From NCBI GenBank assembly GCA_041744215.1, contig JBGTLG010000010.1, forward strand, positions 1 to 24,412: a stretch of DNA of 24,412 nt. The letters are read 5' to 3'. Below, piece by piece: positions 14,702-22,042 of the stretch (position 1 is the stretch's first letter; every line of letters starts with the position of its first letter). The DNA comes from Fimbriimonadales bacterium (GTDB lineage Bacteria; Armatimonadota; Fimbriimonadia; Fimbriimonadales; ATM1). Made by a program: the position numbers and the translations under genes. The notes under the pieces are model-generated. The model worked only from the letters and a program-made list of their open reading frames with translations. It had not been told where the DNA came from and did not search any database.

Positions 14702-16723
14702 TTATTCACCTCCGGGGAGTATTTCCGCTCCGTCGTGCGTTGCCCGAATTGTAATGACCTCACCGAGAAGGCGGACGTTTTTGAACGTGATGCTCTTCCA
14801 AGCAGGAGGCAGGTTGGGGCGAACAGCGAGGCGGTATCCATTTAGCAAGGGTTTCGACGCCGGCGGGCTCTCTCCTCCATTCTTCTCAATATGAACTCCA
14901 AGAAAACCGTAGATCACAGACTGGAGACAGCCGGCGGCGCCGGTTGCGAAGTATACGTCATTTGTGGCCCTCCTTTCGCTAAAAAGCATGAATTCGGGCC
15001 GAACAAACGGTCGCCATGAATCCTGCCAAATGGCGTAGGCCTCCGATTTTCGCCCAAGCCGAGCCGCGATGACCGCGTGGATGCTGTCGCTCATTGCAGG
15101 CCCCGAGAGGGATGTTCGCGTCTTGTATCGATCGAAAAAAGCCTCTTGAGTGTCCCTAGAAAAAGGCCACTCGATGGGATACAGGGCGAGAAGCGCCGCG
15201 GCCTGTTGGTATCCCCTGATTGGGTCGTCGTCGAAGGTAAGCGGAATCCCTTTCGAATCAAGAGGAATTCTCACTCGTGCGAGGTCGGTAGTCAGGGCGC
15301 CGAGATAACTCCGGTGATCAGGTGATAACGCGAAGCCTGCTCTAATCGCCAAAAGGTTCGTGACCAGGTCGTTGTTGCGCAGCCGACCTTCGTCTGGGCT
15401 GGTGACACCGAGAATGTGAAGAGACCCACTTCGCTCGACGGCACGATCTCGATAGAACTCTGCAACGCTCCGCAAGACCGGGTAGGCGGCTGACTCTTCT
15501 GTCAGGCCCATCGCAACGGCGCGCTCGAGCCACCAGCTGACCCAGCCAGCGACATGGATCGCCTCACGGAAGGCCGGTGGGGTGAGATCCTCGCCGATGG
15601 AGCCAGCTTCCCAAGGGACGCGAGCATCGACATCTGTGACAGACAGTCTCCACTCCGTAGCAGCCTTGGCGGCGGCGGGGCGAATCAGCGAGTACACGGG
15701 GAGCATCCATGCCTCGGCATCCCAGAAACGATGGCCTTGGTACTTTTCGCTGCTCAGCGCCATAGGTGGCATTTTCGAGGTGGGAGACATATAAAGATAG
15801 AAGAGCAGCGAGCGTATCGCTTGTTGATCTTCCACAGGGCCTTCGATCTCAATGTCTGTTTGCCAGCGATCGCTCCACACCTCGCTCGATTCCGCGAGGT
15901 TCTCGTCGAGCCAGCGCGGAGGCCCTGAACCGATGCCCGACGTTGTTTCGAACGTCGAGGTCCCGCTGGGTATGCCGCCCTCGAACAAGTAGCCGCGGCC
16001 GTCTTGGCCCTTTTTGGGGCTTTCACGTGATGCACGCCAAGCCCCCGTAAGATTCTCGCTGAGCCTGGAGCGAAATGTGACAATCACGTCTGCCGGCGGC
16101 GAAAGGCTGCGCACCTCCCCAGCGGACACGCGAGTCGTCGGGCACGAATAGGAGAATTCGCTCCAATCCCCTGAATTGCTCTCCACCGGGTTCGCCAATC
16201 CTGTCGGCACTCCTATCCAGATTTGAACAGACTTTGGTGAGCTTGCTTCGAAAGTGACCCTCTGCGAAACAATAGGCGCATCGGCGCCAACAAGCGTTTC
16301 AACGGCAACTGTGACTCCTTGAGAAACCATCTTTGACCGAAGCTTGCCAGTTCGGAAGTCAAGGACTGATTCGAAAGTGTCGGGTCCAGATGGCATCAGC
16401 GGTTGTCCGTTGATCCAAATCTGCATTGCGGCTGGGTGCGGAACTCGGAGGAGTGAATTGTTCGACATCAGGAACGCAGGGAGAAGCGTGCCGTCGGGGC
16501 TGGTCCCGAGCCCGGTGTGACCAATTCGGATACCGAGCCTCGAGTTCCCAAGGTAAGCGGTTGGGCCAACCGCAGAATTGCTGATGGCTGACCAGGGATC
16601 GGGCTTGACTACAGGTTGAGCCTGCGCCGGTGCCGCATCTTTCTGAGTCGCTTTGCCACAAGCGGCTCCAAGTGATACAACCACCATACACACGGCAGCA
16701 ACGAGGCGCGACGTCGGGCTCAT
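14702..16723 (-). CDS. Glycoside hydrolase family 65 lipoprotein (PGGHG/acid trehalase-like)
   Basis: Lipobox-like LGAAC; YQGHRFWDAEAWMLP, PDE, GPAMS.SI, FATGAAGCLQSVIYGF, PNLPPAW. Confidence 0.85.
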   Translation of the reverse strand: MSPTSRLVAAVCMVVVSLGAACGKATQKDAAPAQAQPVVKPDPWSAISNSAVGPTAYLGNSRLGIRIGHTGLGTSPDGTLLPAFLMSNNSLLRVPHPAAMQIWINGQPLMPSGPDTFESVLDFRTGKLRSKMVSQGVTVAVETLVGADAPIVSQRVTFEASSPKSVQIWIGVPTGLANPVESNSGDWSEFSYSCPTTRVSAGEVRSLSPPADVIVTFRSRLSENLTGAWRASRESPKKGQDGRGYLFEGGIPSGTSTFETTSGIGSGPPRWLDENLAESSEVWSDRWQTDIEIEGPVEDQQAIRSLLFYLYMSPTSKMPPMALSSEKYQGHRFWDAEAWMLPVYSLIRPAAAKAATEWRLSVTDVDARVPWEAGSIGEDLTPPAFREAIHVAGWVSWWLERAVAMGLTEESAAYPVLRSVAEFYRDRAVERSGSLHILGVTSPDEGRLRNNDLVTNLLAIRAGFALSPDHRSYLGALTTDLARVRIPLDSKGIPLTFDDDPIRGYQQAAALLALYPIEWPFSRDTQEAFFDRYKTRTSLSGPAMSDSIHAVIAARLGRKSEAYAIWQDSWRPFVRPEFMLFSERRATNDVYFATGAAGCLQSVIYGFLGVHIEKNGGESPPASKPLLNGYRLAVRPNLPPAWKSITFKNVRLLGEVITIRATHDGAEILPGGE

Positions 16724-16736: not shown

Positions 16737-17680
16737 AACGCGTGGGCTTCTAAGAACCGCTCTGCCTCGATCGCTGCCATGCATCCCGTTCCCGCTGCTG
16801 TAACTGCCTGGCGATAGACATGATCCATGACATCACCGCACGCAAACACGCCGTCGATTTTTGTCGTCGTGCTGTGAGGGTTCGTCATTAGGTACCCGTT
16901 TTCGTCGGTTTCAAGCCACTTTGTGAAGAGGTCGCTGTTTGGTTTGTGTCCAATCGCGATAAAAACGCCGTCAATCGGCATCTCCCAAGTCCTAGTATCA
17001 GTCGTGCTGTTGAGTCTAACGCTGGTTACCTTGCGGACCGGGTCGACCGTGCCGACGACTTCGGAGACTTCCGCATTCCAAATGAATTCTATCTTTTCAT
17101 TCGCTAATGCGCGATCCTGCATGATCTTGCTCGCGCGCAACTGATCTCGCCGATGGACGACATACACTTTGCTTGCATGGCGCGTCAAATAGTTTGCCTC
17201 CTCCATCGCGGTGTCTCCGCCGCCTACTACAACAACCTCTTTCCCGCGAAAGAAAAAGCCGTCGCACGTTGCGCACGCGCTCACCCCATATCCGCCAAAC
17301 TCCTTCTCACCGGGCGCGCCGGTCCACTTGGCGTCTGCTCCTGTCGCGACGATGACCGTCGCTGCACGTATCTCGCCTTCATCGGAACGAACTCTGAAAG
17401 GTCGCTCGGAGAAATCAACTTCCGTCACCAGCTTGTCAATGACGCGCGTCCCGAATCGCTCTGACTGCTCCCGAAACAGCGCCATCAGCTCGGGGCCGAG
17501 AATTCCATTGGGAAAGCCTGGATAGTTTTCGACATCGGTAGTGATCATCAATTGGCCGCCGGGTTGCAGGCCAGAAAAGAGGACAGGCGACAGATTCGCT
17601 CTGCCAGCATAAAGTCCGGCCGTGTAGCCGGCCGGACCTGATCCAATGATGACAACGTTCTCCACTGCAGATGGGCTCAT
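16733..17680 (-). CDS. trxB: Thioredoxin-disulfide reductase
   Basis: IIGSGPAGYTA, GGQL, VENYPGF, CATCDGFF, VGGGDTA.EEA, HRRD, YRQAVTAAGTG. Confidence 0.97.
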   Translation of the reverse strand: MSPSAVENVVIIGSGPAGYTAGLYAGRANLSPVLFSGLQPGGQLMITTDVENYPGFPNGILGPELMALFREQSERFGTRVIDKLVTEVDFSERPFRVRSDEGEIRAATVIVATGADAKWTGAPGEKEFGGYGVSACATCDGFFFRGKEVVVVGGGDTAMEEANYLTRHASKVYVVHRRDQLRASKIMQDRALANEKIEFIWNAEVSEVVGTVDPVRKVTSVRLNSTTDTRTWEMPIDGVFIAIGHKPNSDLFTKWLETDENGYLMTNPHSTTTKIDGVFACGDVMDHVYRQAVTAAGTGCMAAIEAERFLEAHAL

Positions 17681-17715
17681 GAGATGACTTTACTCAACTC
17701 TGAAGATCCTGGCAA
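17681..17715 (-). promoter_or_regulatory. Putative sigma-70 promoter of trxB, leaderless: TTGCCA-N17-TAAAGT-N6-ATG
   Basis: -35 TTGCCA at 17715-17710, -10 TAAAGT at 17692-17687, ATG at 17680. Confidence 0.6.
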
Positions 17716-17746
17716 AGCTCCTTGCTTTGCTACTCGCGACGAAAGG

Positions 17747-17761
17747 TGGCACGCGACTTGC
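17747..17761 (+). promoter_or_regulatory. Putative sigma-54 (-24/-12) promoter
   Basis: TGGCACGCGACTTGC matches the TGGCACG-N4-TTGC consensus with exact GG-N10-GC spacing; intergenic position. Confidence 0.7.
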
Positions 17762-17772
17762 GATTCGGTGCC

Positions 17773-17862
17773 AATGCGGGCAACCGCAGAAAGACAGTAA
17801 CAACCAATCTATCCCTCCAGTCCTCTGGCCGGCACGATTCTCGTTGCCGGCCAACGTTTTTT
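17773..17862 (+). ncRNA. Candidate ~90-nt small RNA (or attenuating leader)
   Basis: Begins at the predicted sigma-54 +1. 5' hairpin TGCGG-GCAA-CCGCA, single-stranded A/C-rich then CU-rich tract, ends in a terminator-like hairpin. No family recognised. Confidence 0.55.
17826..17862 (+). terminator. Intrinsic terminator-like hairpin
   Basis: TGGCCGGCACGA-TTC-TCGT(T)GCCGGCCA followed by ACG and TTTTTT. Confidence 0.65.
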
Positions 17863-18006
17863 CGCATCCCATGCTTTTGCCAGGCTACCAAGCTTGCGGT
17901 GGCGGAATAGAAACTTAGGTCAAGGCGGCCGAAGACTCTCGTCAACAGAGTATCGGGTCGCCAACCAAAGCGCGGCGGCCAAGCGGCCCTGCGACGGGAG
18001 TCACCA

Positions 18007-19275
18007 GTGGGAATATCTAGACGCGATTTCTTTCGAAGCGCCGGAGTAGCCGCATTGGCCACTTCACTGCCAGCAGTACTCAAAACAGGTGCGACGGCGT
18101 CATCTGTGCCACCGCAGTACCGCGTAAAGTTCTTTGGCGCCAACGTTCGCCTTTACTGTTTCGATAAGAACAGTCGGATTCGCCGAGATCAAATTCAGCA
18201 GATCAAACGCTGGGGCTTTCGGAAGCTCAGAGACAACGCGCAGCATACAGGCTGGAATCTATACGATCTCAATCACGCAAGGACGGTGATGCTTGACTGC
18301 ATGGCAGAGGGCATTGAGTACACAGTTTGTGGAGTAGATAGAAACCCAGGCCTCGAGAATCTGCTTACTGCCGATCAGTGGGCGGCAGTAAAGACCCGAT
18401 ACAACGGCAATGAGGGTATGGCCAGAACCGCGACGTCGGCGATGGCTGTCGCGCTCCTCAAGCAGCCATTCTGCGATTTCCTTCTCGATCACGTGGTGCA
18501 GGCACGTGCCGCTTACCCTCAAGGTGTCCGAATGCAAGCATACAACGGACCCGAGCTCGACGGCTTCGACCCTTGGAACATGTACGACGAGGAGTACCGA
18601 CAATTCTGGCGAGATATTGGTGTCGATGTTCCGCATGGCGGGGCGAACCCCGTAGCGCTGAACGACTTGATTCGAAACAACTACGATTCTTACGCAAACC
18701 AGGTCAAAGCGATCTGGGGAAGCCCTTGGCTTGGGAAGACCACCCATATGTACGAGTACATAGGGTCGTGGGGACAACGGATGTACGTCGCTCCCGGTCC
18801 AGATTCAATGCAGGAGCCCATCATCACTGAGTGGGGAGCACATCGATTTGAGTGCAACAATCTTGTGAACGTCTTCCAAACACTCCCAATCCGAATGATC
18901 GAGCACAACGCGCAAAAGGGCGTTCAGGTCACGGACGCCACGGGCACTTACAACGTACTCGAGGCCTTTCTCCACGAGCCTCTCGATTCGCGATTCATCG
19001 ATTTGTGGCAGCAGGGTCGAACGCAGCTTCTTTGGAACTCTCGGCAATACTCCGCGCTGGTGCTGAGCATGACCGACAATCGACACGGCTGGGTGCCCTG
19101 GAGCGGCGTGTTTATGGACGCACCGGTCGCAACGGCGATCCAGGAAACCATGCGATCGCTGAGCGGCGCAGGGGGGTCAAGCCAACCCGGCAACGGCCGG
19201 CGAGGAGGTTCGACCGGACGAAGAAACTTGAATGTGTGGACCTCGGATCATGTCAACGAACGCCGCGCTGCTTAG
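18007..19275 (+). CDS. Tat-exported hypothetical protein, possible clan GH-A TIM-barrel glycosidase-like
   Basis: Twin-arginine SRRDFF plus hydrophobic region; SD GGGAG 6 nt before GTG; YNGPE and PIITEWG motifs. The CDS is well supported, the function is weak. Confidence 0.75.
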   Translation: MGISRRDFFRSAGVAALATSLPAVLKTGATASSVPPQYRVKFFGANVRLYCFDKNSRIRRDQIQQIKRWGFRKLRDNAQHTGWNLYDLNHARTVMLDCMAEGIEYTVCGVDRNPGLENLLTADQWAAVKTRYNGNEGMARTATSAMAVALLKQPFCDFLLDHVVQARAAYPQGVRMQAYNGPELDGFDPWNMYDEEYRQFWRDIGVDVPHGGANPVALNDLIRNNYDSYANQVKAIWGSPWLGKTTHMYEYIGSWGQRMYVAPGPDSMQEPIITEWGAHRFECNNLVNVFQTLPIRMIEHNAQKGVQVTDATGTYNVLEAFLHEPLDSRFIDLWQQGRTQLLWNSRQYSALVLSMTDNRHGWVPWSGVFMDAPVATAIQETMRSLSGAGGSSQPGNGRRGGSTGRRNLNVWTSDHVNERRAA

Positions 19276-19356: not shown

Positions 19357-20433
19357 CTACGCCTTCGGCATGAATCGCTTCGAGACCACCATCGCCGGGT
19401 GAGGCTTGTCGCGAATCTCCACTTCGCAGGGCTGATCCAGCGCAGATTCGCCCGCATTGACGAAAGCAAAGGCAATCCCGCGATCTAACATTGGCGAGAA
19501 GACGCCGCTTGAAACGGTGCCAATTTGGTGCCCGTTGCGCAGCACCCGGTAGCCTTCCCTCGGCACAATTTTTGAATCCATCTGAACGCCAACCAACTTC
19601 CTCGTCGGACCGTCGGACCGGGCCGCGTTGATCGGAGTGGAGCCGATGAACTCCTTCGTCTTGGAAACCACCCAACCCAATCCCGCTTCGATGGGGTTGA
19701 TTTGGTCGGACAGTTCATGGCCGTAGAGCGGCAGTCCAGCTTCGACACGAAGTACGTCTCTGCTTGCCAGTCCGCAAGGAGCAACGCCGCACTCGACAAG
19801 CGCATCCCACACTTCAATCGCATGGTCACTGGGGAGGATCAATTCAAAGCCATCCTCACCTGTGTAACCTGTTCGCGCTGCGAACGCTGGCGCGCCGGCG
19901 ATGTCCGCATTGACTGCCGTAAACCGGGGTGTATCAGAGATATCACGCTCAGCAAGTGAGTTGACGATATCGACTGCCTTCGGTCCTTGTACCGCGACCA
20001 TCGCCGTTTCAAACGTCTCGTCTGTCAGAGACACGTCGTATCTGTTGTGCGATTGCATCCATGCGATGTCCTTCTCACGATTTGATGCGTTGATCACCAT
20101 GCGGAAAACGCTGTTCGAGATCCTATAAACGATGATGTCATCGACGCATGTTCCGTTCTCATAGCAGAGCAACGAATACTGAGATCCGCCATCCTGCAGT
20201 TTTGAGATGTCGTTTGTGGTAAGAAGCTCGAGAAACTCGATAACACGCTCTCCTCGAAACCATGTCCGACCCATGTGAGAGACGTCGAACATTCCCGCCC
20301 CTTCCCGCACCGCTTTGCTTTCCGCGATAACACCTGAATACTGAACCGGCATATCCCATCCGGCGAAGTCGACCATCTTGGCGTTGTGCCGCAGGTGCGC
20401 GGCATGGAGCGGAGTCTTAAGCAGTTCGGACAT
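19357..20433 (-). CDS. gcvT: Glycine cleavage system aminomethyltransferase T
   Basis: LKTPLH, FAGWDMPVQY, FDVSHMG, AVQGP, RTGYTGEDGFE, RDVLRVEAGLPLYGHE. Start ATG 20433; the longer ORF overlaps the upstream gene. Confidence 0.96.
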   Translation of the reverse strand: MSELLKTPLHAAHLRHNAKMVDFAGWDMPVQYSGVIAESKAVREGAGMFDVSHMGRTWFRGERVIEFLELLTTNDISKLQDGGSQYSLLCYENGTCVDDIIVYRISNSVFRMVINASNREKDIAWMQSHNRYDVSLTDETFETAMVAVQGPKAVDIVNSLAERDISDTPRFTAVNADIAGAPAFAARTGYTGEDGFELILPSDHAIEVWDALVECGVAPCGLASRDVLRVEAGLPLYGHELSDQINPIEAGLGWVVSKTKEFIGSTPINAARSDGPTRKLVGVQMDSKIVPREGYRVLRNGHQIGTVSSGVFSPMLDRGIAFAFVNAGESALDQPCEVEIRDKPHPAMVVSKRFMPKA

Positions 20434-20447
20434 GAACCGCAGTTTAC
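20434..20447 (-). promoter_or_regulatory. Putative leaderless -10 element (GTAAACT-N7-ATG) overlapping the upstream stop codon
   Basis: Minus strand reads ATGTAAACT GCGGTTC ATG. Confidence 0.5.
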
Positions 20448-22042
20448 ATCCTAATGACGGGCCACTTCGTTTCTTCAATCGGCGCATTGAGTGCCGCGGC
20501 AAGCGCCAGTCCGACAGCCATCCTCGTTTCGGTTGGCAGTATGATCCCGTCGTCCCACATTCTCGCGGTTGCGAAGTATGGCGAACCTTCGCGCTCATAC
20601 TGCTCACGAACTGGATCGCCGATCTTGCGTTTCTCTTCATCCGAGACGGGCCCTTTCATCTCTTTGATTGTAATCAGGACTTGCGCGGCCTGCTCCGCGC
20701 CCATCACTGATATGCGCGAGTTCGGCCACGTAAACAGGAAACGCGGACCGTACGCCCTGCCGCACATCGCATAATTCCCTGCACCGTGCGACCCGCCGAT
20801 CAAGACTGTAAGCTTTGGCACATTCGCACATGAAACCGCCTGAACAATCTTCGCGCCGTCTTTCGTTATCCCGCCTTCCTCGTACCTCTTCCCCACCATG
20901 AAACCCGTGATGTTTTGCAAGAAGATAATCGGAACTTTGCGAGCTGCGCAGAGTTCGATAAAGTGCGCTCCCTTGAGAGCGCTCTCACTGAACAAAACAC
21001 CGTTATTCGCCAGAATCCCAACTTCGTGCCCCATCCATCGCGCGAATCCGCAAACCAGCGTTTTGCCGTACTCGCTCTTGAACTCGTGAATCCTGGAACC
21101 ATCGACTAACCGCGCTATCACCTCTCGCACCTCATAGGGCGTACGGTTATCGGGCGGGATAATGCCGAACAGCTCATCTGCGGAATACAACGGCTCTTCG
21201 ATATCCCAGTCCGGTTCTTTTGCAATTCCAGGCACGCTGCTTGGAATGGACTCGACGATCGACCTCACGATCTCAAGCGCGTGCTCGTCACTGTCTGCGA
21301 GGTGGTCGGTAACACCGGACACCCGCGAATGCATCGCGCCGCCTCCGAGGTCTTCGGCGCTTACCTCTTCACCAGTCGCTGCTTTCACCAGCGGCGGCCC
21401 CGCAAGATAGATCGTCCCGACGCCAGCAACAATGACGTTTTCGTCACTCATCGCAGGAACATATGCTCCGCCGGCGGTACACATTCCCATGACGGCCGCG
21501 ATCTGAGGAATTCCCTGCGCCGACATTTGCGCCTGATTGTAAAAGATGCGTCCGAAATGCTCTTTATCTGGAAAGACTTCGCTCTGCATCGGTAAGAAAA
21601 CGCCACCGGAATCTACGAGATAGATTGTAGTAAGCCGATTCTCCAGCGCGATCTCTTGCGCGCGGATATGTTTGCGAATAGTAAGCGGATAATAGGTTCC
21701 ACCCTTAACAGTCGCGTCATTCGACAAGATCATGCACGCCTTGCCAGAAACCGAACCGATGCCTGCGACAACGCCAGCGCTCGGCACTTCGTTATCGTAT
21801 AGCCCGTAAGCGGCGAGCATTCCAACTTCCAAAAACGCAGAATCTGCGTCGAGCAAACGCTCAATTCGCTCCCGCGCAGTTAGCTTGCCGCGCTCATGAT
21901 GGAGTGCCCGGGCTTTCTCGCTACCGCCCAAGCTGACCTCCGATCTTCGCTGCGATAGCTCTTCGACTATGCCCCGATAATGCTCTGCGTTCGCCTTGAA
22001 TTCGGACGACTTCGGGTTCACCTTGCTGCGGATAGGTTCCAT
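20444..22042 (-). CDS. Carboxyltransferase (beta) subunit of 3-methylcrotonyl-CoA carboxylase (LiuB/MccB-like)
   Basis: [81 protein letters not shown]. Start is ATG 22042 or 22066. Confidence 0.94.

Follow-up and report, generated by a model that had tools for sequence, protein, structure and literature searches.

The 326-nt gap between trxB and a gene for a protein with a twin-arginine (Tat) signal, in the genome of a hot-spring Fimbriimonadales bacterium, carries on its plus strand a candidate gene for a small regulatory RNA (sRNA) with a sigma-54 promoter. The gap lies in a stretch of 24,412 nt of contig C10 (hereafter the window) of the source genome G000, which comprises 2.68 Mb in 42 contigs with 56% G+C. 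trxB (TIGR01292, E = 3e-120) starts at 17680 and reads leftwards on the minus strand, and the Tat-signal gene (422 amino acids) occupies 18007-19275 on the plus strand. A sigma-54 promoter of the -24/-12 type, TGGCACGCGACTTGC, lies between them at 17747-17761 on the plus strand and matches the consensus TGGCAC-N5-TTGC exactly, with the GG and GC doublets 10 nt apart as sigma-54 promoters require. It is the sole match to the motif in the window, even when one mismatch is allowed, where 0.055 exact copies would be expected. Transcription from sigma-54 promoters begins about 12 nt from the GC of the -12 element; the start was accordingly placed 12 nt past the C of this doublet, and a T run marks the 3' end, giving a predicted sRNA of ~90 nt at 17773-17862 on the plus strand.

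All parts of this predicted RNA are encoded on the same strand. A 5' hairpin, UGCGG-GCAA-CCGCA (17775-17788), is followed by an A-rich tract, GAAAGACAGTAACAACCAA (17789-17807), and by a C-rich tract, ATCCCTCCAGTCCTC (also given as AUCCCUCCAGUCCUC; 17811-17825), with CCCTCC at 17813-17818. A putative GC-rich terminator hairpin of 12 pairs with one bulged U (17827-17852) and a T6 run (17857-17862), which begins 4 nt (AACG) past the stem, complete the element. The original prediction, made from the letters alone, had named the consensus promoter, the GNRA-capped hairpin, the A-rich tract and a pyrimidine tract with CCTCC, and each was recovered at these positions. Folding of the 90-nt RNA gave -29.8 kcal/mol (z = -3.26; one of 200 shuffles was equally good), and both hairpins are formed in the centroid structure with the C-rich stretch open. 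The 38 nt from 17789 to 17826, taken as linker and putative seed, are unpaired both in this centroid fold and in the consensus fold with relatives described below. An inverted repeat that had been pointed out between TGGCAC of the promoter and its reverse complement GTGCCA at 17768-17773 is present in G000 but is not kept in G001 of the same genus, and is therefore probably incidental. A look for sequencing runs that contain this DNA turned up four hot-spring metagenome DNA runs and no RNA run; the contigs of the four had no variants or ends within the element and thus offered no natural covariation. Upstream, a perfect inverted repeat, GCAAAGC-N5-GCTTTGC at 17712-17730, overlaps the -35 element of trxB about 50 nt before the sRNA start and may be an operator; G001 shares only GCAAAG of it.

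The 326-nt intergenic region had no BLASTN match in 40 relatives, and loci were then anchored on the Tat gene, which is present in 12 of the 19 other genomes of the family and absent from the 21 genomes searched from four other families of the order. At the anchored locus, promoter, 5' hairpin, C-rich tract and terminator are kept in G001 and G007, so that the conservation asked of a functional element in the original prediction is borne out. TGGCAC-N5-TTGC is exact in both, and its N5 spacer differs. In G001, whose Tat protein is 67% identical, promoter TGGCACagagtTTGC is followed by CAACCA, CCCUCCA, a GGCCGGCG.../...CGUCGGCC hairpin and U8. A 5' hairpin of different sequence, CGGCAG-AUUU-CUGUCG, stands at the same spot as in G000; the two genomes share the block CAACCA..CUA.CCCUCCA, in which CCCTCCA is identical. 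G007, where trxB is divergent as in G000, shows promoter TGGCACactttTTGC, then a body of greater length, CCUCCCCCUCCC and a clean terminator, with TTGACA-N18-TAGAAT placed between these and the Tat gene. A copy on the trxB side in G006 keeps the C-rich tract and the terminator. RNAalifold of the G000, G001 and G006 sequences yields exactly two hairpins with the linker unpaired, and 3 of 15 pairs are changed on both sides: two of the five pairs of the 5' helix, and one pair of the terminator helix, in which two more are changed by wobble. A scan of genome contigs with the single Tat protein recovered G001 only, and an alignment-based scan of metagenome contigs found one further Tat locus, which is without the element. 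Conservation with G001 extends over the 145 nt from the terminator to the Tat start (17863-18006), for which structure is predicted, and GCGGAAU recurs some 100 nt ahead of the Tat start in nearly all orthologues, with or without the sRNA; this stretch may act as a cis-regulatory leader, or as a promoter element of no recognised type.

The same layout was sought across the order as the promoter motif with CCTCC 35-65 nt later, with the reversed pattern as control. As the pattern itself required CCTCC, independent evidence comes only from terminators, genomic contexts, extended C-tracts and covariation. Within the family the pattern is matched in 7 of 20 genomes, against four reversed-control matches: in G000, in G001, at a second site in G006, and at one conserved site in all four g4 genomes. 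In each of these matches the C-rich tract is followed, within ~10 nt, by a GC hairpin with a U-rich tail. Under one fixed rule that allows one stem mismatch, and that calls the hairpin and U run at 17827-17862 a terminator, all six complete family matches have a terminator. Of 23 matches from elsewhere in the phylum two have one (Fisher p = 6e-5 for the six against these, which overstates the difference because the six come from about three lineages), as do 5 of 23 further order-level matches that were chosen by the tool. Across the order the pattern occurs in 70 of 201 genomes, with 92 match rows against ~36 control matches by hand count; it is found in 23 of 29 genomes of family f5, 40 of 148 of f3 and none of the four of f2 and f4. 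Many f3 matches are coding sequence or ordinary sigma-54 promoters of genes. Outside the order, a stricter CCCTCC pattern was matched in 24 of 251 genomes (G000 included) against ~25 control matches by hand count, which is no enrichment.

The f5 matches belong mostly to one RNA family of 65-100 nt, and several matches of one sequence type are 5' untranslated regions (UTRs) of genes rather than sRNAs. In ten aligned f5 RNAs from three genera no variation is seen in the promoter, in the linker CCCUCCCUCUC or in a second CCCUCCC that occupies the terminator loop, and five of the nine terminator pairs covary; a stem that covaries below loops that do not change would be expected of functional seeds. 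One f5 genome, G055, has five pattern matches. In f5 genus g15 an inverted repeat extends from the -12 element to about +15, for example GCTATGACC-N9-GGTCATAGC, with a variable middle. It may serve as a DNA operator; were transcription to begin upstream of the assumed start, it may instead form a 5' hairpin. Other RNAs of related design were seen beside this family. G010 and G013 share a sigma-54-driven, terminated RNA of ~135 nt with CUCCC, CCCUC and an internal AGGAGAG, G013 has a further such RNA of ~100 nt, and in G003 (C8:51615) a sigma-54-driven, terminated C/U-rich RNA lies directly upstream of a tRNA gene.

The genome holds the machinery that such a promoter needs, as the original prediction had called for: rpoN was found on contig C16 (E = 1.6e-33), and one of five weak-to-strong AAA+ matches, the only true activator among them (E = 2.8e-75), is an enhancer-binding protein (EBP). 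This sole EBP has 392 amino acids with REC, Sigma54_activat and AAA_lid domains and GAFTGA in its translation; the domain scan found no helix-turn-helix match and there is no room for one. Its gene, on the minus strand of contig C6, follows a gene for a PAS-HisKA-HATPase kinase and is adjoined by a Fur-family gene. With only one true activator, located beside a PAS kinase, the sigma-54 regulon would stand under a single two-component pair. FlgR of the Campylobacter FlgRS system is able to act without its DNA-binding domain, like this truncated EBP. The G000 activator presumably needs no enhancer, in keeping with the position of the promoter a mere 67 nt from the start codon of trxB. rpoN is present in 14 of the 20 family genomes and the six that lack it are all of genus g3, in which neither rpoN nor the element pattern occurs (0 of 6 each), and all seven family genomes with a pattern match have rpoN. 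Five rpoN-positive genomes (G002, G008, G009, G010 and G013) have no pattern match, although G010 and G013 share the ~135-nt RNA mentioned above.

The regulon appears to be tiny, with four consensus intergenic promoters. These four, the element's own included, are the intergenic and correctly oriented ones among nine exact copies of the motif in the genome; the other three precede genes for a sigma-70-family factor, a PEP-CTERM protein with a good Shine-Dalgarno (SD) sequence and a halogenase-like flavoprotein. In relatives, promoters of the same type stand before orthologous genes, namely those for the sigma factor, a protein that is SurA-like by translation and one with a signal-peptide-like N-terminus. 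Since the intergenic consensus promoters front real genes and their orthologues, the motif works as a promoter in this lineage. The other likely members of the regulon (an alternative sigma factor, a PEP-CTERM protein and proteins that are secreted) are suggestive of a role at the cell exterior, a theme proposed for sigma-54 regulons in the account of PMC3162934.

Outside the trxB/Tat locus the layout recurs in quite different company. It was found in six neighbourhoods: between trxB and the Tat gene in g1, G006 and G007; with ribBA and gatB in g4; with an amidase and a polysaccharide deacetylase gene at the second G006 site; with a SPOR-domain gene and the convergent 3' end of ftsH in g15; with mutS in g13; and with an Rrf2 gene in g20. 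In g13, g20, g4 and G007 the terminator is followed by a -10 box of the TATAAT/TAAAAT type or by the full TTGACA-N18-TAGAAT. As the downstream gene in g15 is convergent, nothing downstream there can be led by the RNA, and constant linkage to one downstream gene, as expected of a cis-acting leader, was not found, the genes elsewhere being unrelated or convergent. Judged from gene order and from these promoters, the leader explanation fails for the group.

We therefore favour, as probable though with considerable doubt, a stand-alone sigma-54-dependent sRNA gene of ~90 nt whose CCCUCC seed would pair with SD regions. The mechanism that we infer, including the transcript ends, the action in trans, the anti-SD pairing, the targets and the inducing signal, would run as follows. 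The EBP, acting as response regulator of the PAS histidine kinase and without a DNA-binding domain, would activate sigma-54 RNA polymerase to start near 17773, and most transcripts would stop near 17862, where the hairpin and U run lie. The resulting RNA would have a protective 5' hairpin, the 38-nt unpaired stretch and the terminator hairpin. CCCUCC would pair with the GGAGG-type ribosome-binding sites of a subset of mRNAs and block their translation, possibly with the help of Hfq, while leaderless mRNAs such as that of the neighbouring trxB would be left untouched. Hfq is encoded in the genome; Hfq-dependent sRNAs carry a 3' hairpin and a U tail, and the G000 RNA has both. The RNA contains the conserved, unpaired seed CCCUCCA and no conserved open reading frame (ORF), and CCCUCC holds the core of the anti-SD sequence of the genome's own 16S rRNA, which ends in ...GGATCACCTCCTTT (also given as ...GGAUCACCUCCUUU) with the canonical CCUCC.

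By crude gene calls, 369 of 2517 first starts have a 5-mer SD ahead of them, compared with 95 for a control offset, and 252 of 2517 have a TAnnnT box directly before them, compared with 89, which suggests that the genome has both SD-led and leaderless-type starts; an SD profile over all candidate starts was uninformative. trxB itself looks leaderless, with TAAAGT ending 6 nt before its ATG and TTGCCA 17 nt upstream (minus strand, 17678-17715), and the corresponding ACTTTA block before trxB is conserved in all relatives read.

Target prediction, by exact complementarity and RNAduplex, gave no convincing target: generic SD complementarity dominates the genome scans, GGAGG SD-like sites are plentiful, the RNAduplex ranking is uninformative, and the adjacent Tat gene ranks 1766 among 7283 candidate starts. 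A perfect complement of 14 nt, longer than any other in the genome, lies in an arm of a palindromic repeat beside an IS200-like transposase. As its other strand equals the sRNA sequence, this copy being identical to the seed region on one strand and complementary on the other, it was rejected as a target. The transposase is of the IS200/RAYT type (C18:949-1625) and is flanked by the palindrome TATCCCTCCAC-N9-GTGGAGGGTA, which has six copies in the genome; further sites are at C4:107966, C8:11564, C25:86449 and C27:6152. A separate scan for a C-rich tract plus terminator retained 40 of 1060 terminator-like sites in the genome, and five that were inspected were set aside because they are located inside coding sequence or immediately behind it, or in other settings with no sigma-54 motif. 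Two tracts, CCCUCCCC (C15:206970, plus strand) and CCCUCCUCC (C20:31711, minus strand), stand directly after stop codons and before strong terminators, and could be 3'-UTR-derived C-rich RNAs.

Several observations weigh against a stand-alone sRNA, and some of them speak for a cis-acting leader, in which the sigma-54 promoter would serve the Tat gene and a leaky terminator or attenuator would sit in a 234-nt 5' UTR, any short RNA being no more than a by-product; a dual role, as sRNA and by read-through, is counted here as well. The GC hairpin and T6 of the original prediction are present, but the 4-nt AACG that separates stem and U run departs from ideal terminator geometry; the T8 of G001 is also 4 nt from its stem, and a terminator scan accepted only a weaker 5-bp hairpin (17842-17856) that overlaps the big stem and abuts the T run. 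A scan between the terminator and the Tat gene found no sigma-70-type promoter on the plus strand in G000, and together with the offset U run this makes read-through and a cis role in G000 possible. The element also precedes the same Tat gene in G000, G001, G006 and G007, and the conserved and structured 145 nt up to the Tat start would suit a leader. On the other hand, the layout stands before unrelated genes or the convergent ftsH elsewhere, G007 has its TTGACA-N18-TAGAAT between terminator and Tat gene, nine of the twelve other orthologous Tat genes lack the element and yet keep the GCGGAAU leader motif, and Rfam holds no riboswitch or leader that the RNA resembles. The attenuating leader that the original prediction had named as its alternative is thus excluded for the relatives and retained for G000, where we judge it unlikely although still deserving of attention. 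Other adverse points concern distribution. Those nine element-less Tat loci include that of same-genus G002, and exact TGGCAC-N5-TTGC sites in G002 (six), G004, G008 and G009 are without the element layout; the G006 copy on the trxB side lacks a 5' hairpin, and lacks a sigma-54 motif even when three mismatches are allowed. The CCTCC of the pattern matches is there partly by construction, and the group may be several analogous families, since in a multi-genus MAFFT alignment only the promoter aligns and homology across genera is not demonstrable.

The promoter motif alone is not beyond chance: base composition predicts 6.06 exact copies for the genome and nine are present, and five relatives have 27 against 25 for the reversed control. 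These counts would suit an element with no dedicated function, a chance sigma-54-like motif next to a hairpin of other purpose, such as the insulation of divergent promoters. Yet the whole element is more than chance, because the case for it comes from conservation and not from a single sequence: all four modules are kept in G001 and G007 despite absent DNA similarity, terminators accompany every complete family match and hardly any in the phylum background, and the element co-occurs with rpoN, which makes a functionless motif very improbable. Another possibility is a sigma-54-dependent decoy or sponge, whose C-rich tract would titrate a G-rich RNA (an sRNA or IS200-type repeats) or an RNA-binding protein. 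GlmY and CrcZ are sigma-54 sRNAs that act as protein decoys, many relatives have a pair of C-rich tracts of which one is placed in a loop, as is typical of multivalent binders, and the arms of the six-copy palindromic repeat bear UGGAGGG complementary to the seed. The arms are, however, tied up in their own hairpin, the G000 RNA has a single CCCUCC tract beside a weaker UCCUCU, and no partner for it emerged; we hold a decoy to be distinctly improbable. As for a peptide product, a leaderless micro-ORF of eight codons (MRATAERQ) begins with an ATG at 17774, +2 of the predicted transcript, and stops at 17798, in an organism that has leaderless-type starts. By eye, the nearest ATG in G001 lies 2 nt past TTGC, upstream of the plausible start and in an unrelated frame, and other lineages are without a comparable ORF, so that a coding role seems extremely improbable.

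The reading as an undescribed sigma-54-dependent small RNA gene is well supported by the comparison of genomes. Rfam 15 matched only a tRNA in the window and nothing relevant in 17600-18100 at E <= 10, and ten related loci gave nothing at E <= 1 except a sub-threshold match to PrrB/RsmZ, in keeping with the earlier claim that the RNA is undescribed. Further non-coding RNAs made from sigma-54 promoters include Pxr of Myxococcus, NrsZ of Pseudomonas, GlmY and CrcZ; these have other sequences, structures and modes of action, and none was matched in the Rfam scan of the region. In the literature searched, no paper dealing with sRNAs or with regulation by sigma-54 came up for Armatimonadota or Fimbriimonas.

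Among better-known systems, Qrr1-5 of Vibrio are described as stand-alone sRNAs of ~100 nt with sigma-54 promoters, the NtrC-type activator LuxO, an intrinsic terminator and often several paralogous copies (bioRxiv 10.1101/2021.07.01.450815; PMC3730234). Control by sigma-54 and an NtrC-type regulator would be common to both, and the five pattern matches of G055 recall the multiple copies of Qrr. Against this, there is no match by sequence or covariance model, the G000 seed is C-rich, the G000 activator is without a DNA-binding domain and the phylum is another. RsaE/RoxS of Firmicutes carry repeated unpaired C-rich motifs that, as outlined in PMC6158497, bind G-rich or SD sequences and prevent the formation of initiation complexes. 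CCCUCC would, by analogy, pair with GGAGG-type ribosome-binding sites as those motifs do, and the f5 relatives also have two C-rich motifs, in linker and loop; RsaE/RoxS are not sigma-54 dependent, however, there is no Rfam match, and only a single motif is clear in the G000 RNA. CJnc230 (FlmE) of Campylobacter jejuni, a ~98-nt RpoN-dependent sRNA, needs FlgRS and represses mRNAs by pairing, and according to PMC11187230 it is mainly processed from the 3' end of flgE mRNA by RNase III. Dependence on RpoN and a two-component system is predicted for the G000 RNA as well, but the element has its own promoter and no co-transcribed gene upstream. As far as sequence comparison goes, the predicted RNAs form an undescribed sRNA group of Fimbriimonadales that is a member of none of the Qrr, RsaE/RoxS and CJnc230 families.

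The Tat-signal protein encoded at 18007-19275 has no Pfam or NCBIfam family, and a profile search of solved structures (PDB) gave no relative; a language model places it near cellulase-like proteins (PF12876; score 0.93) with which it shares few features, and this can serve as a lead only. A GH65-like gene lies at 14702-16723. The gcvT ORF (19357-20640, minus strand) has ~72 residues listed ahead of its family match, and its true start is therefore probably internal.

If real, this would be the first sRNA family for Armatimonadota, as far as the literature searched extends. The circuit would be a simple one, of one kinase, one activator without a DNA-binding domain, sigma-54 and a handful of promoters, and it would join sigma-54 control with C-rich anti-SD seeds, each of which is known separately. 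In organisms with a mixture of leaderless and SD-led messages, one can also ask whether an sRNA discriminates messages by their mode of initiation. Perhaps, although this broader idea is rather improbable, a sigma-54/two-component switch in Fimbriimonadales releases anti-SD-mimic RNAs that govern the mode of initiation globally and, once induced, damp the SD-led minority as a class while leaderless mRNAs continue to be translated; if true, regulation would be set by how a message recruits the ribosome and not by gene-specific seeds.

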